The notes under the pieces are model-generated. The model ran no database searches. It saw nothing but the letters and a program-made list of their open reading frames with translations, and was not told where the DNA came from. Shown here piece by piece: positions 1,309 through 12,127 of a stretch of 57,097 nt of DNA (within the stretch, counting starts at the first letter, position 1; each line of letters starts with the position of its first letter). This stretch comes from Candidatus Thorarchaeota archaeon (GTDB lineage Archaea > Asgardarchaeota > Thorarchaeia > Thorarchaeales > Thorarchaeaceae): positions 1-57,097 of the forward strand of contig JAWAQK010000008.1 of NCBI GenBank assembly GCA_038893995.1. Reading direction: 5' to 3'. The position numbers were made by a program, and so were the translations under genes.

Positions 1309-2130
1309 ATGAACGACCAGCCGGCCACTGTGTCGTCGTCGAGGACCAGAGTGGTCGATCGATCTGAGTATGCCAAACGAGTGATCATCAGATGGGTCCT
1401 GCCTGCGACCGCGTTATTGGGCCTGTGGCAGTTCGTGGCGTACATGGCTGGGGGAATCTCCCTCACCGACGTGGCGATAGCATTCATGAAACTGGTCCAG
1501 TACGGGGCGGAGGGTAGGACTCTGATTGAGCATTCGCTGGTGAGCCTCTCACGGGTGGTAGTGGGCTTTGGGGTGGCGGCCGCCACTGCCATGCCGCTCG
1601 GCATACTCGTGGGACGATACAAGGCGGTGGATGCTGTCGTCGGCCCGGTAGTGGAGGCGACACGACCAATCCCACCCATTGCCTGGATCCCCCTGTCAAT
1701 AATGATGTTCAGGACGAATCTTGCCGCTGCTCAGATCTTCATAATCTGGATTGGGGCATTCTTTCCGATCCTCATAAACACAGTCACCGGGGTCAAGCGT
1801 ACCAGTCCTGTGCATCTGGACGTTGCTCGCACATTCAATGCCACCGAGCTGCAGATACTACAGAAGATCGTGGTGCCATCAGCGGCTCCCGAAATGCTCG
1901 CAGGACTCAGGATAGGATTCGGAATAGGATGGATGTGTCTCATTGCGGCCGAGATGATAGGGGGTGGCCTTGGGCTTGGGTACCTGACAATCATCATGGA
2001 ACAGCTGGGCAGGACTGGCGAAACAATATCCACACTCCTGACGATTGGTTTCTTTGGTTTCGTCTTCACCTATGCCTTCTTGAGAATGGAGCGTCGACTG
2101 CTCCGTTGGCGAAGGGAGGTTGCGGTCTAG
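1309..2130 (+). CDS. ABC transporter permease (SsuC/TauC-like)
   Basis: SLSRVVVGF, RPIPPIAWIPL, EAA-like loop and LIAAEM..GLGY motifs; start moved to ATG 1309 to avoid overlap with upstream gene. Confidence 0.88.
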   Translation: MNDQPATVSSSRTRVVDRSEYAKRVIIRWVLPATALLGLWQFVAYMAGGISLTDVAIAFMKLVQYGAEGRTLIEHSLVSLSRVVVGFGVAAATAMPLGILVGRYKAVDAVVGPVVEATRPIPPIAWIPLSIMMFRTNLAAAQIFIIWIGAFFPILINTVTGVKRTSPVHLDVARTFNATELQILQKIVVPSAAPEMLAGLRIGFGIGWMCLIAAEMIGGGLGLGYLTIIMEQLGRTGETISTLLTIGFFGFVFTYAFLRMERRLLRWRREVAV

Positions 2131-2903
2131 ACCGCCCTGCGATACAGGCTCTTCTCCTGTTCGACCCTGAGCATCTCCAGTATCTTGGCCCTGTAGCTGA
2201 CACACCCGGTACTTGCGCGGTCGCGAGGCCTGGGCAGATCTATCACGAACTCCTCAATAATCTGGGATGGCGCGTTACTCATTAGCAAGACCCTGTCAGA
2301 CATGAATACCGCCTCGTCAACATTGTGAGTGACAAAGACGACAGTCGATCCAGTCTCCTGCCAGACCCTCAAGAACTCCTCCTGAAGGTAGTTTCTGGTC
2401 TGGGCATCTAGGTTCGAAAATGCCTCATCACAGACAAGAATGGCTGGGGACGTGACGAGACTCCGAGCAAGCTCCGTCTTTCTTGCCTGGCCTCCCGATA
2501 TCTCATGCGGAAAGTTGTTCTCCAGGCCCTCCATTCTCATAAGAGTCAGCATCTGGTCAACTAGACCGGTCCTGGTCTCTTCAGGTACGCCTCTGATCTC
2601 AAGACCAAACTCTATGTTCTTTCTGACAGTCCGCCAAGGGAACAGACTCTGCTCCTGGAATACGTAGCCTACGCGTCCATGCCCAATGCGAGTTATCTCA
2701 CCATCGATGATCACATCTCCACTGTCCCGTTCGAGCAGTCCCGCAACTATCTTGAGAAGAGTGGTCTTTCCACAACCTGAGGGCCCAACGATGCCTAGCA
2801 GTTCCCCCTCTCTGACGTCGAACGATATCCCCCCCAGGACCTCTACAGGCCCATTGTCCCCAGGATATGACTTCCTGATGTCACGAACTGAAAGTTTTGC
2901 CAA
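2127..2903 (-). CDS. ABC transporter ATP-binding protein (SsuB/TauB-like)
   Basis: Walker A GPSGCGKTT, signature ISGGQ, Walker B LVCDEAF, H-loop VTHN. Confidence 0.9.
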   Translation of the reverse strand: MAKLSVRDIRKSYPGDNGPVEVLGGISFDVREGELLGIVGPSGCGKTTLLKIVAGLLERDSGDVIIDGEITRIGHGRVGYVFQEQSLFPWRTVRKNIEFGLEIRGVPEETRTGLVDQMLTLMRMEGLENNFPHEISGGQARKTELARSLVTSPAILVCDEAFSNLDAQTRNYLQEEFLRVWQETGSTVVFVTHNVDEAVFMSDRVLLMSNAPSQIIEEFVIDLPRPRDRASTGCVSYRAKILEMLRVEQEKSLYRRAV

Positions 2904-3202: not shown

Positions 3203-5533
3203 GTGGTCCAATTGCAGAGTCCGAAACTGCTCTTTGAGATTGAAGATGATATCAATACGAGTGCCATTGCTACTGGTGATGTCACTGGTTCCGGCCTTCC
3301 GGAGCTTTGCACCGGTGGAAGAGACGGTATAATAAAGCTCTACGCAGCAGACTCGAATACCGTAAGACTGCTTGCCCAGCTTGATGTCCCCGGTAGCGTG
3401 CTGACAATCAGGATCGCCGACGTCAATGGTGATGGCAGGAACGAGATCGTAGTTGGGCGCAGTCTTGGAGTTGGAGAATCTCCGGGTGTCTCTGGGACTC
3501 TTCAGATCTACAGGTTTGTGAACAGCGGGCATCTCGAACTTCTCGCCGAGCACCCCATCGACAGATTTGTGACCAGTGTATACGTTGTTGATGTCACCGG
3601 TGACGGTAGGGACGAGATCGTAGCCGGAGGCAGTGACTCTACTCTCAGAGTACTGAGTGTCAGTAGTGACAACATGATAACCGAACTTGTGAACTATCAG
3701 TTGGACGACATGCCCCTCTCCATAGGCATCTGTGATGCCGACGGGGACGAGGTCGACGAACTCGTGGTAGGTAATCGAGACAAGACTGTGAGGGTATTCA
3801 AGATACATGACCGCGCCATCGAGCAGATCGAGATGCTAAAGCTCCCATCTCCAGTCATTTCGATTGCATCCGGTGACATCTTGGGCGATCGTAAGATGGA
3901 ACTGGGTGTGGTGACGCATGATGGGTCAATCAGGGTCTACAGGAATGAAGAGAATCATCTGGAACTATTCTCGACCCTTGAGGGCGTCAAGGCTCTCTCA
4001 ATCCGCATATCTGAACTGAATGCCGACCACATGGACGAGATTGTCGTGGCAACTTCCGACTACAAGATCGTCTACTACAACCTCTACATGGGTGAGCTGA
4101 GAGAGATTGCGAGGGTCGAGGTTGGCAGCAAGATACTCTCAATCGCCATTGGTGACGTGGGTGGTGACGACCTCAAGGAGATACTGGTCGGTGTCTCCGG
4201 AGGCCCACTCAAGGTCATTCAGGGACTATACCAGGTCGTGCCCCGATTTGATGTAGAGCCTCTGACGGAGACAGGCACAACGCTCACTGGTCGCCTCACG
4301 GTCATCAATGTCTCTGACAGGCCCATAAACGGGATAACCGGAAAGATATACTGGTTCCCCAAAGACCACCTGGAGATCGACAAGCAGCAGATACGTCTTG
4401 ACCTCGCACCGGGCGAACGGAAGACGGTCGAGATCGTCTTAACGCCCCTCGTTGAGGGCACAGTGATAGTCCGTCCCATCGTCCTGATGTGGACCGACGA
4501 GAGGGGACAGGTCAACCAGGTCACGACGCCGGAGACCGCCATATCTGTCCAGATGGGCAAGGCGTATGCCGCACCTGTTGCAGAGGCTCCGGCCATCACC
4601 AAGACTGACTTCACTCCCTCGACTCCCGTCAGTACGGAGACTGTGACCCAGCAGCCCGTGGCGGCTGTCGAAGGTACCGGATTCAGCCCCCTTACAGCGG
4701 GCGAGATCTCGAAGATTGAGCAGGAGTTCTCTGGGGTCAGCGAGGAGTCACTCAAGGCCGCAGAAGGCCTATTTGACAGACTCTTTGGCAATGACAGTGC
4801 CGAAGTACCCGACCCGGGCGCACTGGCGGACATTAGGCGTCTTGTGACTGAATCGCCTGTTGTGAGTGAGGCAGGACCAGCCCCTGCGGCTGAAGTTCCG
4901 GAGACCGCCGTGGAGAGCGCTCTTGTCACCGAGATAAGGTCGAGAACGCCGAAGCCGCCTATGCCTGGTACTTCGCCGGAGAGCTATAGCTATCTCTTCA
5001 AGACTATGATAGTCGGTGAGGGTGCGGTTGGGAAGACGGCCCTCGTGAATCGTTACGTGAGTGGAACATTTGAACGAGACTACAAGACCACAATCGGCTC
5101 TCAATTTGCGGTGAAGCTGACACATATCTTTCCACCAGACTCGCCCTACGCAGTCGGAGTGAAGATACAGGCATGGGATGTTGCAGGTCAGAGCAGATTT
5201 GCGGCCGTCCGTGGGATGTACTACAAGGGCGCAGCAGGCGTGATCCTCGTCTTCGATGTGACTAGGAGGAGGTCCTTCACAGAGCTATCACGCTGGGTCC
5301 AGGAGGCTGATGAACACATTGGGTTCCGCGTACCAATGGTCTGTGTAGGAAACAAGGTGGACCTGCCAGACCGTGCGGTCAGCTCCGAGGAGGCAAAGGC
5401 CTGGGCCGAGAGCAACGGATTTCTCTACATGGAGAGTTCAGCAAAGACTGGTAGGGGCGTCGCGGACATGTTCACCGTGTTGGCTGAGTTGATGTATCGC
5501 GAGGCCAAGAAGAGCGCCAGTGCAAAGAGATAG
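3203..5533 (+). CDS. FG-GAP/VCBS-repeat beta-propeller + Ig-like domain + low-complexity linker + C-terminal Rab-like small GTPase fusion
   Basis: Seven DxxGDGxxE(I/L)VVG-type repeats; GTPase motifs GEGAVGKT, YKTTIG, WDVAGQ, NKVD, SAK. Confidence 0.88.
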   Translation: MVQLQSPKLLFEIEDDINTSAIATGDVTGSGLPELCTGGRDGIIKLYAADSNTVRLLAQLDVPGSVLTIRIADVNGDGRNEIVVGRSLGVGESPGVSGTLQIYRFVNSGHLELLAEHPIDRFVTSVYVVDVTGDGRDEIVAGGSDSTLRVLSVSSDNMITELVNYQLDDMPLSIGICDADGDEVDELVVGNRDKTVRVFKIHDRAIEQIEMLKLPSPVISIASGDILGDRKMELGVVTHDGSIRVYRNEENHLELFSTLEGVKALSIRISELNADHMDEIVVATSDYKIVYYNLYMGELREIARVEVGSKILSIAIGDVGGDDLKEILVGVSGGPLKVIQGLYQVVPRFDVEPLTETGTTLTGRLTVINVSDRPINGITGKIYWFPKDHLEIDKQQIRLDLAPGERKTVEIVLTPLVEGTVIVRPIVLMWTDERGQVNQVTTPETAISVQMGKAYAAPVAEAPAITKTDFTPSTPVSTETVTQQPVAAVEGTGFSPLTAGEISKIEQEFSGVSEESLKAAEGLFDRLFGNDSAEVPDPGALADIRRLVTESPVVSEAGPAPAAEVPETAVESALVTEIRSRTPKPPMPGTSPESYSYLFKTMIVGEGAVGKTALVNRYVSGTFERDYKTTIGSQFAVKLTHIFPPDSPYAVGVKIQAWDVAGQSRFAAVRGMYYKGAAGVILVFDVTRRRSFTELSRWVQEADEHIGFRVPMVCVGNKVDLPDRAVSSEEAKAWAESNGFLYMESSAKTGRGVADMFTVLAELMYREAKKSASAKR

Positions 5534-5534
5534 A

Positions 5535-6143
5535 CTATACTCTCACCAGGTTCCTTCCCATCTCGACCCCTCTCTCAAATGATGCCAAGTTCCCGCCCAC
5601 AGAGGTGTCAAGGTCCTGTACAAATCTCCTCACGGTCTGTACTGGAATGGGTAGAACACCCGAGCCTGCAACCACGCCAAGCACAAACACGTTCAGCATG
5701 AGTGTTCCCGCATCTCGGATCAGACCCTCAACATTCACCTCGTACACTGTTCCGCAGATCCGGGATATCAATCGAAAGACCTCCCGCGTGTCAGGGTACT
5801 TGGCCCGACCGGAAGCAGTGTCAGTCGTATGTATTGGCAGATTGCTGATGAAGGCTGTAGTCCTCCTAGAACCATACTCAACGGCGGCCCGGAGCGACTC
5901 CATCGGTTCCAGTCCAAGAAGCAGGTCTACACGACCACGGGGGATGAGTGGGGATGCTCCGTTGACACCATCTCTGCAGAGTCTCAAGTGAGTGAAGACT
6001 GTACCTCCTCTGCGAGAGGCGCCAAAGGTCTCACTCAATATCGGCGACAATGAGACATCCATTGCTGCACGGGCCAAGACTCGTGTGGCCACTAGGCTCC
6101 CCTGGCCACCAACACCAGCAATCAGGATGCTGAACGGTTCCAT
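5535..6143 (-). CDS. iorB: Indolepyruvate:ferredoxin oxidoreductase beta subunit
   Basis: ILIAGVGGQG, ETFGASRRGG, LGLEPME; directly downstream of iorA. Confidence 0.85.
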   Translation of the reverse strand: MEPFSILIAGVGGQGSLVATRVLARAAMDVSLSPILSETFGASRRGGTVFTHLRLCRDGVNGASPLIPRGRVDLLLGLEPMESLRAAVEYGSRRTTAFISNLPIHTTDTASGRAKYPDTREVFRLISRICGTVYEVNVEGLIRDAGTLMLNVFVLGVVAGSGVLPIPVQTVRRFVQDLDTSVGGNLASFERGVEMGRNLVRV

Positions 6144-6150
6144 ATCATGG

Positions 6151-8016
6151 CTACCTCCGTCCTATTGCCTGGTTCGGACAGACACCTACGCATGACCCAC
6201 ATCTGACACAGATGTCTTGAAGTACCTTCGGACGTCTAGATCCAGAGTCCCACGAGATCGCGACGCATGCGTAGCTGCTCACGCATATCTTGCACCTCTC
6301 CCCCTTGCACCGGTCAGGATCTATGACGATGGCCCCTGCTTGTCCATGGTTGCGCTCAATCCTCTCCTCGTAGAGCCTGCACTTGCTCTCCAGAATGATG
6401 ACCCGAAGTCCACGCAGCTCCAGCGCGCCAGTAAGCGCCGATTCTATCTCAGTGATATTCTCTGCATCGGCCAGGGACAGCCAATCTGCCCCTACTGCAT
6501 CGACAACTCTCTCTATGCTCACAGGTCGGTGCCCATCGACTTCTGACCCTACCCCGGGGTGTCCTTGAAATCCTGTCATGGCAGTGGTCTGGTTATCCAG
6601 GATCAAGAACAAGACATCTGCATCCTTGTGTCTCAGGTTTACGAGAGCCGGAATACATGAGTGGAAGAACGTGGAGTCGCCGGCGAGTGCAATGACCTTC
6701 GATCTGAGACCGAACCTCCACAGCTGACCCACACCGTTGGCGGTCCCAATGCCTGAACCCATGGCCTGCATGGTCTCCATTGCTCCGCCGTAGAAGGCCC
6801 CAAGCGAATAACACCCGATGTCTCCGAGTACGATCAGTCCCTCTCTGCGTCTCTTCCTCATCCTGTTGAGTACCCAGAACACATTCCTGTGAGTGCATCC
6901 TGCGCAGAAGGTGAGAGGCCTGGGTACAAGTATCGACTCCGACTGGCGACGGGCCTCTGGGTCTGGAAGACCTCCCCACTCCCGACCTGACAGTCTGGCT
7001 ATGGCTGATGCAACAGTGTCAGGGTCCAGCTCGCCCCATGACGGTATCTCATCTGTCCTCTTCCCGTGAATCTGTATGTCAATGCCCTCCAGGTCTGCAA
7101 CCGTCCTGAGTTCCTCTTCCACGAAGGAGTCGGTCTCCTCCACGACAAGTACTCTCTTTGTCCTTCTCATCGCACCAGCAACAGTCCTACGAGGAATGGG
7201 ATATGACGTCACTAGTCCGAGATGACCAACTTGTCCTGCCTGAAGCATTGAGATCGCTTCAGATGCGTACCTCTGACAGACACCTGTGGATACTACTAGA
7301 ACATCCATGTCTTGATAATACTCTTCCCTATTCAGGCCAGATTCATCAGACTCCACAGAGATTCTCTCGAGCTTCTTGATGAGGTCACGATGCCTCAGAT
7401 GTGGGTCTGGGATGTTGAAGAGCCCCTTGGGCAATCTGTTGAGGACTGTCACATCACCAGCAGGTAGATCCCCCAGTGACACAGACGACCTCGAGTGACT
7501 GAGTCGAGTTGTTGAACGAAGAATCACTGGCACTTCGTGCCTTTTCGATAGCTCAAGCGCGTACGGGATGATGTCCTTGGCCTGCTGAGGTGATGACGGC
7601 TCCAGCAGAGGTAGACAGGCGGCCCGGGCGTAGAATCGAGAGTCCTGCTCGTTGCTGGAGCTGTGTCCCCTCGGGTCGTCACAGACCACGATCAACAGTC
7701 CTCCGCTACCAGAACCTGATAGATTGAGGTTGAGGAGAAAGTCTGCTGCGACATTCAGCCCGAGAGACTTCATCGAACACAGTGCAGGTACCCCCAACCA
7801 ACTTGCCCCTGCAGCGGCCTCTAATGCCACCTTCTCATTCACACTCCACTCACAGTACACCCGCCCTGGTGACGATTCTCTCATCACAGTCGCGACTATC
7901 TCGGTCGCAGGAGTTCCTGGATAGGATGTATAGAAACGGACTCCCGCCTCGAGCGCCCCTCTCGCAATTGCCTCATTCCCGCTCATGAATTGCACTGCCT
8001 TAGCACTCGTACTCAT
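6151..8016 (-). CDS. iorA: Indolepyruvate:ferredoxin oxidoreductase alpha subunit
   Basis: MSGNEAIARGALEAG, YPGTP, NEKVALE, FCAGCTHR, GDIGC, TPP motif GDSTFFH, C-terminal ferredoxin Cys clusters; start chosen at ATG 8016. Confidence 0.92.
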   Translation of the reverse strand: MSTSAKAVQFMSGNEAIARGALEAGVRFYTSYPGTPATEIVATVMRESSPGRVYCEWSVNEKVALEAAAGASWLGVPALCSMKSLGLNVAADFLLNLNLSGSGSGGLLIVVCDDPRGHSSSNEQDSRFYARAACLPLLEPSSPQQAKDIIPYALELSKRHEVPVILRSTTRLSHSRSSVSLGDLPAGDVTVLNRLPKGLFNIPDPHLRHRDLIKKLERISVESDESGLNREEYYQDMDVLVVSTGVCQRYASEAISMLQAGQVGHLGLVTSYPIPRRTVAGAMRRTKRVLVVEETDSFVEEELRTVADLEGIDIQIHGKRTDEIPSWGELDPDTVASAIARLSGREWGGLPDPEARRQSESILVPRPLTFCAGCTHRNVFWVLNRMRKRRREGLIVLGDIGCYSLGAFYGGAMETMQAMGSGIGTANGVGQLWRFGLRSKVIALAGDSTFFHSCIPALVNLRHKDADVLFLILDNQTTAMTGFQGHPGVGSEVDGHRPVSIERVVDAVGADWLSLADAENITEIESALTGALELRGLRVIILESKCRLYEERIERNHGQAGAIVIDPDRCKGERCKICVSSYACVAISWDSGSRRPKVLQDICVRCGSCVGVCPNQAIGRR

Positions 8017-8121
8017 CTCACACCGCACTGTTGAGTCTGGCTCAACGCCTGAGAAAACAGTTTCGGAGTTGGCCATAGTGGAAACAGTCAAAAACAGATT
8101 GGCAGTGGGAGTGAAGTCAAC

Positions 8122-9222
8122 ATGAGCAACGAGTCGGGGGTATCGGCCCACATCCAAAGCATTCGATCAGTGTCCCACGACAAGGACCCTGATGGAGTGT
8201 GCTCTGCGGCAATCGTCTGTCGTTACGCCAAGAGAAAAGGTTTGAGCTACTCGGTCACCCTGTGCGACTATGGCGACTTGGCAGAGACCTTCGCCGCGTT
8301 AGCAACCCTGAGGAACACACTACTTGTGGTCACAGATCTCGGTGTCGATGCCAGGTCTTTGCCTGCAGTACTGGAGGCCCTCAGACGGGCATCCAGTCAG
8401 GGTTGCATGGTCGCTTGGTTTGACCATCACCAGTGGCCAGAGAAGTCCATTCGAGGTCTACTGGGCCTTGAGAAGAAGCCTCTGCTCAAGTTGCGCCAGG
8501 ACATGTGCGCGGCAGAGATCACGCACAGAGTTCTAATGCCAGACGACGAAATCTCCAGAGAACTTGCATCAGTCGCTCGCGATTCTGACTTCAATATTCG
8601 CGAATTCGCCTCATCGTCCGCCCTCGCCGATGTGATCTCACTGCTCCGATTCGCTGCACTGGAGTCGAAACAGGACACGACTACAGTCCTGACGCCTCTC
8701 TTGCAGGTCCTATCGGATGGGGGTGTGGCCGCCGTGTGGGACCAGACACGGATGAGGCTGAGAGATGACCTACTCGAGAAGAGAGTCCAGAACTATCGTC
8801 GGGAACGCAACAAGAAGATGAGGAAGGCCCTCCTCGGTCATCAGGATCTCGAGATACACGGTCGTCTAGTACGAGTCGTAGAGCTTCCCGTCGGTGTCAC
8901 CACGACAGACATGGGCGTCTTTGCCTCTGATCCCGCCAATCTAGACCTGGACGGGCACAGACTCAGCCCGGCAGACCTTCTTGTCACGATCAGTCCCGGG
9001 GGAACACTTGGTTTCAGACGTGCCAAGGACAACGTCTTATGCAATGAGGCGGCACGACTATTCAACGGAGGCGGCCATCCCTACGCCGCAGGCGGCGAGT
9101 ACGGAATGTACAGTGACTTTGTTGCTGCGAGCACCGATATCTTCTCTGTCCTGTCACAGAGCAAGAGCTGGGTCGTCGAGAGCCCACCTCATGCAGAAAC
9201 GGACGGAACTGACCCACAGTAG
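8122..9222 (+). CDS. DHH/DHHA1 family phosphoesterase
   Basis: HxKDPDG, TD, FDHH and GGGHPYAAG motifs. Confidence 0.85.
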   Translation: MSNESGVSAHIQSIRSVSHDKDPDGVCSAAIVCRYAKRKGLSYSVTLCDYGDLAETFAALATLRNTLLVVTDLGVDARSLPAVLEALRRASSQGCMVAWFDHHQWPEKSIRGLLGLEKKPLLKLRQDMCAAEITHRVLMPDDEISRELASVARDSDFNIREFASSSALADVISLLRFAALESKQDTTTVLTPLLQVLSDGGVAAVWDQTRMRLRDDLLEKRVQNYRRERNKKMRKALLGHQDLEIHGRLVRVVELPVGVTTTDMGVFASDPANLDLDGHRLSPADLLVTISPGGTLGFRRAKDNVLCNEAARLFNGGGHPYAAGGEYGMYSDFVAASTDIFSVLSQSKSWVVESPPHAETDGTDPQ

Positions 9223-10169
9223 CCATTCCCTGACGGACACTCGAAACCTCCACGTCTGGCGGCGCAGACGGACGTGCTCCACTTCTGCTCGAACGTACGG
9301 ACCATGCTACCGAGGACCACTCGTCCATCCGGATGGCTCATTGCAATGGTGCGGCGTACAGGAGAGACCCTGGCTGGCAACATCAGTGCGTATTCAGTAT
9401 CAACAGCAAACATCTGGTGACTAGTCTCTGGTATCTGACAGTGCCTGATACATACTGGGCATGGCAACCCGAGGCGTCTGGTATTGTCCACAACCCTGCT
9501 GATCAGACTTGAGAGCTTCCTGCCAGCGAAGTCATGATCTGGATGAGACACGATGGTCCTTACCCGGGCACCATGCATCGCTGCTGTGACAACAACGTGC
9601 TCGTACATTCTGCGTACCGAGACATTGCCAATCAGGTCTGAGAGCAGCAGCATCACTCTCACAGTGGAACCGTGGGTGATTCTCTCGGTCAGGCGCTCGA
9701 AGTGTGATGAGGTCACATCATTGTCTCTGGCTATGGCTTGCTCTTCATTACCGCCGCCCATCAGATAGTTGATAGTTCTCAGAGTCAGGTCGTCGATATC
9801 AACGGAATTCAGCATCTCCAATCTCTCTGTCAGCGATTTCTGCCGGGCGGTGAGTCTCGCGATGAGTCTGTCTACCATGTTCTCAACTGAAGATGCCACC
9901 ATCTCTCTGGTTGTAAAACAACAGATTGGCCTACTGAACCTGTTGATCAGCAGGAATCCCTGTTTCTCGAGTCTACGGATACACTTGTACACCCAATTTC
10001 CAGTGACCGGTCTTTCTCTGTTGCGATTCAGTGCTCTCGTAAGCTCATCGAGCGTGACTGACTTGTCCTGAACCGATGCCCTGATGACGACATCAATCAA
10101 CGCCATCTCCGAGTCACTGAGTTCTGTTGCAACAACGCTCAGTAAGCTACGGATGTCTTCTATCGTCAT
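9189..10169 (-). CDS. TrmB-like protein (wHTH + coiled coil + PLD-like effector domain), paralog 3
   Basis: wHTH (WVYKCIRRLEKQGFL), heptad segment, C-terminal FAVD...FEQKW pattern; start estimated at MTIEDIRS. Confidence 0.65.
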   Translation of the reverse strand: MTIEDIRSLLSVVATELSDSEMALIDVVIRASVQDKSVTLDELTRALNRNRERPVTGNWVYKCIRRLEKQGFLLINRFSRPICCFTTREMVASSVENMVDRLIARLTARQKSLTERLEMLNSVDIDDLTLRTINYLMGGGNEEQAIARDNDVTSSHFERLTERITHGSTVRVMLLLSDLIGNVSVRRMYEHVVVTAAMHGARVRTIVSHPDHDFAGRKLSSLISRVVDNTRRLGLPCPVCIRHCQIPETSHQMFAVDTEYALMLPARVSPVRRTIAMSHPDGRVVLGSMVRTFEQKWSTSVCAARRGGFECPSGNGYCGSVPSVSA

Positions 10170-11076
10170 AGGTTGTCTCTCCGGTTTCCACCGTGACTCG
10201 AGTTCCACATGCAAACTCTTGGTCGAATACCTCTCCAATGTGGGCGATAAGACGATGGTTCGATAGGACAGGTATGTAGACCGAGACTGGGGGTCTTCTC
10301 ATCAGACTCAGAACGGTCCCCTCTCTCTCCAGACCTACGAATTCGTAAGTCATGGTGGTCTTGGAGCGAATGGCCATGTTCAGAGCCCCACTGGCAACGA
10401 ACGATGAGACCGGACGAAGGAGTGACCCGAGGATGTCTCGCTTGTCATTCCAATCACTCCTGAGTAGGATCTTGACATTGCACCCCATCCCGAGGATACG
10501 AGCGAGAATCTCATTGTCACTGTCTAGGAGGCGCATTTCCAAATCGGGCGAATGAATTCGAACGATGCTGCCTTCGTGCGCTCTTGAGAATATGTATTTC
10601 TCTACTAGCAGCAGGGTCGTCTCAATTCCCCTGGCCGTCTCAACTCGCTGCACAGAATAGTCGTTCCCAATGCTTCCTGTGACAGTGGACTCATGCCTGC
10701 GTTTCCACTCCTCGAGGACCTTCAATTGAGTCACGGTCCGATCCAGTTCGTCCATGATAGACTGTAGCACAGTTCTGACCCTCTTCTGTAGTGCCCTTCT
10801 CATAGTCGCGACATTCGCAGTATATCGGTGTCTGTATCCGGTCCTATCGACACTGATGTATTCCTCCTCCTCGAGTTCCATCAATAGGCTGTACGCGGCC
10901 GATTCTCGTATCTTGCTTGATGGATATGTTTGACTGAGCATGTCATACAACACTGAGAATGGTACTTGGTCCTGTGTCTTGCTGGCCCTGAGTAGTACCG
11001 AGAGTACTCTGAATCTCCATTCATCTTCCCTGATCCCCAGATGCTGAGGCGTGACTGAAGATACTGGACGGTCCAT
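10147..11076 (-). CDS. TrmB-like protein, paralog 2
   Basis: wHTH (AYSLLMELEEEEYI...RHRY), coiled coil, GIETT...A.EGSIVRI, FDQEF; start estimated at MDRPV. Confidence 0.65.
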   Translation of the reverse strand: MDRPVSSVTPQHLGIREDEWRFRVLSVLLRASKTQDQVPFSVLYDMLSQTYPSSKIRESAAYSLLMELEEEEYISVDRTGYRHRYTANVATMRRALQKRVRTVLQSIMDELDRTVTQLKVLEEWKRRHESTVTGSIGNDYSVQRVETARGIETTLLLVEKYIFSRAHEGSIVRIHSPDLEMRLLDSDNEILARILGMGCNVKILLRSDWNDKRDILGSLLRPVSSFVASGALNMAIRSKTTMTYEFVGLEREGTVLSLMRRPPVSVYIPVLSNHRLIAHIGEVFDQEFACGTRVTVETGETTYDDRRHP

Positions 11077-11101
11077 CTCGGAATGACACTGCATCGATAG
11101 T

Positions 11102-12127
11102 TCACCTGTTTTCTCGTGCGGCCTCAGAGATAGATCTAGTGAAGGGGCCCGGTCCAACTCCCAGCATGGAGATCTCTCGATCTCCTATCTGTGTCATGGG
11201 AATTGCGCTACTCCATGCTCTATCAAACTCCCTCACGAGATCGTCTATCAGGTCTGCACTCGACTCCCTTGTATGGAGGACAGCGATGAGTTGATCATCG
11301 GGAATCATGAGGAGGGCCCTGTCCTTGTTCAGTATCACGAAATTGTAGCCGTCGATCTCAGACGATAGTCTCCACTCGAAGCTTACTCCTGCGTTCTTGA
11401 GTGCGTATACCTCCTGGACCGTAGATCGGATGTCCTGCTGGGCCAGCTGGGAGGCAACTCTTGCGTCTCCTCGGACCATTTCTGTACTCACGAGATATCT
11501 TATATCAGCGCCTCTTCTTGCGGCCTCGATGAACTTGACAGTTCTCTCGCCGATGCCAGTGACAAGTGGTCTCACCGAACCAACGAACAATCGGATCATG
11601 TCCCCCGTCTTTGCGCAAGATGCAAAGTTGTGCAACAGGATCCGATGCATGGCCTCGACACCTTCTACAATATGGTACTTGAGGTTCTGGACAACGCCCG
11701 ACGCACTGTAGACCAGCTGCTGAGCAAGTAGCCCGGGATCAATCTGTTCTATTGCCGAGACCTCCTGCTTCAGCTTCTCAATCTGTTCCATTCGCTGGCC
11801 AAGCGCTAAGGACTTCATCCTCTCGAGGCTACACGTAATGATGTCGACATCGGAGGAGTACGTCCTACGTGATGCAGCGTCCTCCGCCTTGACCAGACCA
11901 CGCCTCACCAGGAATCTCAGATGCCTCTGAATCGCTGCTGGGTGCGCTCGGGCGTGATCAACGCTGAGCCGTATCTGCTTGAGGGTCACAGTACCGGCTG
12001 TCGACATGGTCAACCTGAGTATCTCGCCCAATAGTGCGAGGGGACCGGATCCCTCTCTCAGTCCTTCCAGGCCTAACATGGCGAGCTTCGAATTCATGTC
12101 ATCAGAAGATCTGGAATCTGACAACAT
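11102..12127 (-). CDS. TrmB-like protein, paralog 1
   Basis: wHTH (IQRHLRFLVRRGLV...RRTY), coiled coil, AARRGADIRYL, FVILNKD, FDRAWSSA. Confidence 0.7.
   Translation of the reverse strand: MLSDSRSSDDMNSKLAMLGLEGLREGSGPLALLGEILRLTMSTAGTVTLKQIRLSVDHARAHPAAIQRHLRFLVRRGLVKAEDAASRRTYSSDVDIITCSLERMKSLALGQRMEQIEKLKQEVSAIEQIDPGLLAQQLVYSASGVVQNLKYHIVEGVEAMHRILLHNFASCAKTGDMIRLFVGSVRPLVTGIGERTVKFIEAARRGADIRYLVSTEMVRGDARVASQLAQQDIRSTVQEVYALKNAGVSFEWRLSSEIDGYNFVILNKDRALLMIPDDQLIAVLHTRESSADLIDDLVREFDRAWSSAIPMTQIGDREISMLGVGPGPFTRSISEAARENR

Follow-up and report, generated by a model that had tools for sequence, protein, structure and literature searches.

In the BBSome, GTP-bound ARL6 binds the propeller of BBS1 and so recruits the complex, and the GAE domain of BBS1 follows that propeller (PDB 4V0M). 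ITFG2 (PDB 9V6E, 9O5A), which consists of a propeller only, pairs with KPTN in the four-subunit KICSTOR complex of the Rag GTPase pathway. Here we describe a gene from the first 57,097 nucleotides of contig JAWAQK010000008.1 of a Candidatus Thorarchaeota archaeon (this whole stretch is referred to as the window) whose product joins, from N to C terminus, a seven-bladed propeller, an immunoglobulin (Ig)-like sandwich, an acidic linker, a Rab-like G domain and a basic tail. The domain combination is new, its parts are of known kinds, and the literature that could be searched contains no description of it. The account that we favor, and hold to be probable, is that of a GTP switch permanently leashed to its own platform, in a multidomain small GTPase that is cytoplasmic, present in one copy and restricted to one order.

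The protein can be set beside several described systems, each of which matches it in part. Thor-Rab (PDB 7EZB, 7EZD, 7EZE) has in common with its G domain the G1 to G5 boxes, Rab-like switch motifs and the absence of a prenylation cysteine; Thor-Rab, however, stands alone, whereas the G domain described here is the last domain of a 773-residue protein and comes after propeller, sandwich and acidic leash. The BBSome subunits BBS1, BBS2, BBS7 and BBS9 (PDB 6VBU, 6VOA, 4V0M) are 11-19% identical to the window protein, and the GTPase of the BBSome, ARL6, is Arf-like and separate whereas that of the window protein is Rab-like and covalently attached. After its propeller the window protein has one sandwich and then a linker that matches no Pfam family, and its matches to ITFG2 are short and repeat-based. 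With the extracellular FG-GAP/VCBS propellers (the integrin alpha headpiece, CRTAC1, PVL lectin and TcB of the Tc toxins) it shares the repeat class, and in integrin alpha an Ig-like domain likewise follows the propeller; those proteins are secreted, whereas the window protein is, judged by its sequence, cytoplasmic and ranks them below ITFG2 and BBS2. ROCO (Roc-COR) proteins such as LRRK2, with its WD40 propeller, also carry a Ras-like G domain and a seven-bladed propeller in one chain, but in the reverse order, and the window protein lacks a COR domain and a kinase and has a Rab-like G domain. In the literature we found no paper that joins Asgard with FG-GAP, or Thorarchaeota with Rab and propeller, and only irrelevant papers for Asgard with BBSome and GTPase. 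The report on Thor-Rab by Tran et al. 2024 (PMC10933270) describes longin and roadblock fusions without mention of a propeller fusion, and neither it nor a 2026 structural-modelling paper mentions the present architecture.

The gene is one unbroken open reading frame (ORF) on the plus strand, 3203-5533, of 776 codons counted from GTG. The true start is likely the TTG at 3212, giving 773 amino acids (aa), since the N-termini of homologues and a 773-aa public entry (P0002) point there; orthologues begin two residues ahead of a conserved S-P-K-[IVL]-L-F-E-I. Residues are numbered here in the 776-codon GTG frame, in which aa 9 lies at nucleotide 3227. The features of the gene are as follows.

3212-5533, plus strand: whole gene, 773 aa from TTG (likely start), with the ORF open from GTG 3203
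3227-4222, plus strand: seven-bladed FG-GAP-class beta-propeller of an ITFG2/BBS2/BBS7-like subtype, aa 9-340 (Pfam, model, PDB profile, Foldseek, VIA)
3275-3316, 3416-3457, 3587-3628 and 3731-3772, plus strand: loops D-x-x-G-D-x-x-x-E-[IL]-V-x-G of the first four blades
3872-3913, 4010-4051 and 4151-4192, plus strand: the same loops of the last three blades
4235-4576, plus strand: Ig-like beta-sandwich, aa 345-458 (model and structure searches)
4577-4972, plus strand: acidic linker, aa 459-590, net charge -12, with indels, less conserved
4673-4684, plus strand: linker motif G-[TS]-G-F, in 100 of 116 orthologues
4748-4789, plus strand: linker segment S-L-K-A-A-E-x-L-[LF]-D-x-L-F-G, its core [LM][LFIM][DE]x[LM]FG in 112 of 116 orthologues
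4910-4969, plus strand: proline-rich, basic segment VESALVTEIRxRxPKPPxPG, abutting the G domain
4988-5494, plus strand: Rab-like small GTPase domain, aa 596-764
5015-5038, 5174-5191, 5351-5362 and 5435-5446, plus strand: G boxes G1, G3, G4 and G5
5495-5530, plus strand: basic C-terminal tail YREAKKSASAKR, without cysteine

From 27 diverse orthologues we built an AlphaFold2 model of aa 1-462, which reached a pLDDT of 88.9 and a pTM of 0.86. The model contains 28 strands arranged as seven blades of four (aa 9-340), a seven-bladed propeller of the FG-GAP class, followed directly by an all-beta sandwich (aa 345-458), and has no helix anywhere in the modeled region. The repeat motifs lie at aa 25-38, 72-85, 129-142, 177-190, 224-237, 270-283 and 317-330, a spacing of 46-57 residues. 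In Pfam, curated cut-offs were exceeded by Ras (155 bits, E 1.2e-45, aa 600-764), Roc (99 bits), FG-GAP_3 (82.7 bits, 2.8e-23), FG-GAP (41.6 bits), BBS2_Mid (62.1 bits, 6.4e-17) and Beta-prop_BBS7 (61.5 bits, 1.1e-16), the last two against a cut-off of 27, and Itfg2 (41.5 bits, 1.4e-10). A sequence-only reading of this DNA had described seven repeats, a sandwich, a linker and an intact Rab-like G domain; ORF, Pfam and model confirm all four, with internal coordinates that agree within a few codons. By sequence and hydropathy, neither a signal peptide nor a transmembrane segment was seen in the window protein or in any orthologue, and the highest 19-residue hydropathy window (1.83) does not indicate a transmembrane helix because it falls inside the sandwich.

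The G domain has all the boxes of a Ras-superfamily small GTPase (TIGR00231, 79.6 bits), and its G1 GEGAVGKT, switch-I threonine, G3 WDVAGQ, G4 NKVD and G5 SSAK are invariant in 27 family members. Its segments IGSQF, KIQAW, RFAAVR, YYKGA and LVFDVT each presumably match three to four positions of the corresponding RabF consensus; the RabF1-F5 consensus reportedly goes back to Pereira-Leal and Seabra in 2000. The top 60 PDB matches are all Rabs or Thor-Rab, with stand-alone Thor-Rab 7EZB the best solved relative (E 9e-43), followed by Rab14, Rab25, Rab11, Rab2 and Rab1. Compared with Thor-Rab, the fused domain has four extra residues inserted in the beta2-beta3 hairpin. Among full-length stand-alone proteins, the nearest are 182-aa Thorarchaeal "Rab family GTPases" (51-58% identity), and matches closer than these are fragments of the fusion itself. 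The fused G domain is a Rab-like paralogue (~54% identity) of the 182-aa stand-alone Thor-Rab that was recruited into the fusion, and it seems not to be a canonical Rab. It is followed by the 12 residues YREAKKSASAKR, which contain no cysteine and hence no prenylation signal of the CC, CXC or CAAX type; of 116 full-length orthologues, 115 likewise have no cysteine among their final 10 residues. The earlier description of a protein without a signal peptide and with a basic C-terminus free of a cysteine prenylation motif is thereby borne out. The genome holds 29 Ras-family matches, among which the nearest paralogue of the fused G domain is at C4:30052-30723. Ras-family domains also occur there in long frames, at C1:123381-124880 (500 aa), C38:18525-19946 (474 aa) and C61:4225-4578 (681 aa).

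The fusion is genuine, conserved, single-copy and confined to one order. More than 110 database clusters, named "GTP-binding protein, Candidatus Thorarchaeota" and including the original SMTZ-45 genome, share the architecture at 757-826 residues, with 60-71% identity over the N-terminal half. In a survey of 400 genomes of the phylum, of the kind that the sequence-only reading had proposed, the fusion was present in one copy per genome in 77 of the 85 genomes of the window's family, single-contig assemblies included, and in the sole genome of a sister family of the same order, at 60-71% identity; six of the eight family genomes without a match are less than 90% complete. It was not found at E<=1e-20, our threshold for absence, in the ~310 other genomes of the phylum, where only five stand-alone propellers of ~30% identity were seen. 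Recurrence in these two families and in so many clusters settles that the gene is no assembly artefact. When 1.84 billion representatives were clustered at 50%, just three orthologous clusters emerged, one of them of 781 residues and 42% identical, with the architecture unchanged. Column identity across 116 orthologues is 0.7-0.9 in the propeller and sandwich, 0.85-0.97 in the G domain and 0.42-0.64, with indels, in the linker; strong purifying selection acts on each of the four parts.

What kind of propeller is this? A profile of the family's N-terminal half, compared with PDB sequences, aligned collinearly with ITFG2 from the N-terminus onward (E 6.9e-9); next came BBS7 (7.4e-4, over one 111-residue stretch), BBS2 (5.8e-3), bacterial FG-GAP-type structures (0.017-0.16) and integrin alpha-IIb (3.3). 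The single propeller sequence gave ITFG2 at 3.7e-7, BBS2 at 4.8e-5, a hemolysin-related protein at 6e-3, BBS7 at 0.058 and integrin alpha-5 at 1.7. Structure searches with Foldseek and VIA ranked BBS2, BBS9, BBS7, BBS1 and ITFG2 first. Likeness to the BBS proteins and ITFG2 had been anticipated from the sequence, and it is indeed to these, not to secreted VCBS or CARDB proteins, that the best structural and profile matches fall. As controls we used four propeller-sized segments cut from giant FG-GAP repeat proteins, which phmmer identifies among the 1.84 billion representatives as the nearest non-orthologous relatives of the propeller (~28% identity). Their top PDB matches were PVL lectin (5e-13), a secreted esterase (2.5e-12) and CRTAC1 (1e-10 and 3e-5), together with YenB/TcdB and integrin alpha-IIb; ITFG2 came up a single time (0.005), as did BBS2 (0.014), and two of the four segments matched neither. 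In a wider Pfam control, 50 of 50 FG-GAP segments matched FG-GAP_3 and FG-GAP strongly. The window protein's 82.7 bits for FG-GAP_3 is about one third of the 160-255 bits of ordinary propellers, and it reaches the three BBS/ITFG2 models together (6e-17, 1e-16 and 1.4e-10), matching both the Itfg2 family model and solved ITFG2. We read the propeller as a cytoplasmic, degenerate FG-GAP-class subtype whose nearest solved relatives are ITFG2, BBS2 and BBS7. For the sandwich, an unbiased structure search returned the BBS1 GAE domain as top match, tied with many other Ig-like domains, and Pfam ASH gave only E 0.011. We therefore do not assign the domain a specific GAE, ASH or CARDB identity.

The linker is ~130 aa long here and 105-130 residues in most orthologues, is rich in alanine, glutamate, proline, threonine and serine, has a net charge of -12 against a family median of about -20, matches nothing in Pfam at E<=1 and is presumably disordered. 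In the 42%-identical orthologue the linker is still acidic and retains a similar segment of patterned hydrophobic residues as well as the proline-rich, basic segment. The segment S-L-K-A-A-E-x-L-[LF]-D-x-L-F-G is possibly an amphipathic helix. Because the conserved islands stand within an otherwise variable acidic linker, they suggest docking motifs. The F-G motifs of the linker might be ear/GAE-binding peptides, whose consensus they would fit only in part, and we leave this as an idea.

We envision a scenario in which the bound nucleotide would determine whether the Rab-like domain itself, or the linker segment, occupies a binding face of the propeller and sandwich. Occupancy or freeing of this face, in cis or between molecules, would then gate assembly with partners. 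The basic tail may lend weak affinity for anionic membranes, and assembly could possibly take place there. The precedent would be the binding of ARL6-GTP to the BBS1 propeller, with the link made covalent here. An intact switch, a protein-interaction platform and a leash with conserved motifs always occur together; that the switch works tethered to the protein's own scaffold is our inference. A complex prediction of the propeller and sandwich with the G domain, GTP and Mg scored 0.00, which counts neither way.

Several observations weaken the likeness of the N-terminal half to the BBS and ITFG2 scaffolds. Seven-bladed WD40 propellers of the generic kind come within 2-3 Z units of BBS2 and ITFG2, and the best single ITFG2 stretch in the profile search amounts to 18.7 bits, the remainder being short repeats. 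Among the 50 control segments, at E<=1e-9, four matched BBS2_Mid (best 5.8e-18), four BBS1, two Beta-prop_BBS7 and one Itfg2. BBS2, BBS7 and BBS9 possess coiled-coil, platform and helical domains, which the window protein lacks. The phyletic range of the fusion is narrow and its homology signal weak. The preference for BBS and ITFG2 proteins is real, enriched and atypical of the FG-GAP class, but it is modest, because a few ordinary FG-GAP members reach similar Pfam scores and WD40 folds score nearly equally. The fusion seems to have been invented within this lineage and not to be ancestral to a eukaryotic complex.

The alternative that survives best, although we consider it unlikely, is that the propeller and sandwich are true homologues, sister or ancestral, of the BBSome and KICSTOR propellers, and that the fusion records an ancestral scaffold-GTPase link, a proto-coat or tether. 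Profile and single sequence alike place ITFG2, BBS7 and BBS2 foremost among the solved relatives, the match to ITFG2 runs collinearly from the N-terminus, BBS proteins and ITFG2 lead both structure searches, and the sandwich's top match lies, in BBS1, behind the very propeller that binds ARL6-GTP. Stand-alone BBS7/ITFG2-like propellers also exist in other Asgard families: a 552-aa protein (P0391) of family f22 matches BBS7 at 8.5e-8, ITFG2 at 3e-6 and BBS2 at 6e-4 among PDB sequences, and 48 of 135 f22 genomes, against 0 of 14 control genomes, have six-frame matches that exceed the Beta-prop_BBS7 cut-off. The only literature trace that we found is in a 2026 preprint, which names but does not discuss a structural cluster labelled BBS7/ITFG2 and exclusive to Asgard archaea and eukaryotes. 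Against homology stand the weak and fragmentary scores, the ordinary FG-GAP propellers that reach the same Pfam models, the nearly as high WD40 folds, the missing coiled-coil and platform domains and the restriction to one order, and convergence of degenerate cytoplasmic FG-GAP repeats could explain the likeness as well. Common ancestry of the propeller with the eukaryotic ITFG2 and BBS proteins is plausible, but fold similarity alone cannot establish it, because WD40 propellers score nearly as well. The words coat, tether and Rosetta stone, which the sequence-only reading applied to the gene, go further than what is shown: WD40 scores are nearly equal, a minority of ordinary FG-GAP members reach the same models, coiled-coil and platform domains are lacking, the fusion is confined to one order and no partner gene is linked to it. 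It is similarly doubtful that the fusion and the Asgard stand-alone propellers share a cytoplasmic lineage with ITFG2 and BBS1, BBS2, BBS7 and BBS9 and preserve an ancient scaffold-GTPase partnership. If they did, the roots of BBSome/KICSTOR-type machinery would lie in Asgard archaea, and a single polypeptide could serve to reconstitute the partnership.

A second alternative, which we rate as improbable, makes the protein a lineage-specific signaling GTPase resembling ROCO proteins, its propeller and sandwich acting as a sensor or binding a substrate, with no tie to membranes or trafficking. It would account for the Pfam Roc match, the lack of a lipid anchor and of a nearby trafficking gene, and the narrow phyletic range, and it fits a genome in which multidomain GTPases are common, since several of the 29 Ras-family matches lie in frames of 474-681 aa. 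At E<=1, however, the protein matches no COR, kinase or other signaling output domain, the best matches of the G domain are Rab-like and not Roc-like, and the propeller subtype points to scaffold proteins. Membership in the ROCO family itself was rejected, as there is no COR match and the G domain is C-terminal with just the 12-residue tail behind it. That the gene encodes an extracellular or surface FG-GAP/VCBS adhesin, or is a chimeric gene call or assembly artefact, is scarcely credible: its nearest non-orthologous relatives are giant FG-GAP repeat proteins, but no orthologue has a signal peptide or transmembrane segment, a cytoplasmic-type GTPase is fused, and the architecture is repeated in 78 genomes, single-contig ones among them, and in more than 110 clusters.

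One candidate partner of the fusion protein is encoded elsewhere in the same genome. The closest paralogue of the fusion's propeller there is a stand-alone 334-aa propeller (C33:20815-21816, E 1.7e-10, 25% identity; locus L002:1243-2247, plus strand, of G000), which is found in 81 of the 85 family genomes and in the sister-family genome, mostly in one copy and at 23-46% identity. It scores 25 bits, below threshold, against Beta-prop_BBS7 and has no match among PDB sequences. ITFG2 partners the propeller protein KPTN, and BBS2 partners BBS7; by analogy with these pairs, the 334-aa propeller is a possible partner of the fusion protein. A shared distribution of two core genes is in itself no proof.

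At the stand-alone propeller loci of other Asgard families that we inspected, no GTPase was fused or adjacent. The f22 proteins that match Beta-prop_BBS7 fall into two size classes, of about 560 aa and about 375 aa, and the 552-aa protein has no Pfam match in its last 200 aa. In one f22 genome (G268) a 552-aa BBS7/ITFG2-like propeller (L016:2202-3860, Beta-prop_BBS7 89.8 bits) lies directly downstream of a gene for a 678-aa protein (L016:17-2053) with a DUF11 match and an adaptor-complex medium-subunit (mu-homology) match of 26.2 bits, below the cut-off of 31.6. In a genome of family f26 (G291), a 366-aa BBS2-like stand-alone propeller (BBS2_Mid 88.7 bits) and a divergent actin-like gene (ALP_N / MreB-like_C) adjoin each other at L015:901-1974 (minus strand) and L015:2127-3227 (plus strand), and a 347-aa protein without a Pfam match comes after the propeller.

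In the window, an ABC-transporter ATPase gene (2127-2903, minus strand) lies upstream of and divergent from the fusion gene, and the gene for the gamma subunit of pyruvate:ferredoxin oxidoreductase (POR; 5535-6143, minus strand) lies downstream and convergent; the fusion gene is therefore a monocistronic transcription unit. The order ABC transporter, fusion gene, POR, DHH is identical in the closed genome CP070761.1, and POR and DHH also adjoin the 42%-identical orthologue. We considered the ABC transporter, the POR subunits and the DHH protein as operon partners and set them aside: the gene is monocistronic, and the order, although conserved, is functionally uninformative. No partner or trafficking gene is linked to the fusion gene in the window or in the compared loci. 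Within a few kb of the fusion gene, two other genomes have a further small GTPase gene next to DHH, coding for a 177-aa Ras-like protein in CP070761.1 (L018:14110-14643) and for a 319-aa Arf-like protein in the other (L019:11794-12753); in the window, no such gene stands between POR (6151-8157) and DHH (8122-9222). Beyond DHH, at 9189-12127 on the minus strand, the window has three consecutive, partly overlapping genes of ~340 aa each without a Pfam family, save one weak DUF7436 match, and three similar unannotated genes are likewise placed after DHH in CP070761.1 (L018:15931-18274).

Asgard small GTPases are central to arguments on the origin of eukaryotic membrane trafficking, and their binding partners are almost unknown. 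The fusion carries a built-in candidate partner, in that a Rab-type switch is joined to a platform of the kind that forms eukaryotic cargo-sorting and nutrient-signaling scaffolds, which small GTPases operate. As a single, soluble-looking and strongly conserved polypeptide, it offers a practical object for testing a nucleotide-dependent interaction of the effector type. If the propeller lineage is shared with ITFG2 and the BBS proteins, one scaffold family would be added to the Asgard inheritance of eukaryotes; if it is not, the gene would be a clear case of the independent assembly of a GTPase and a propeller.

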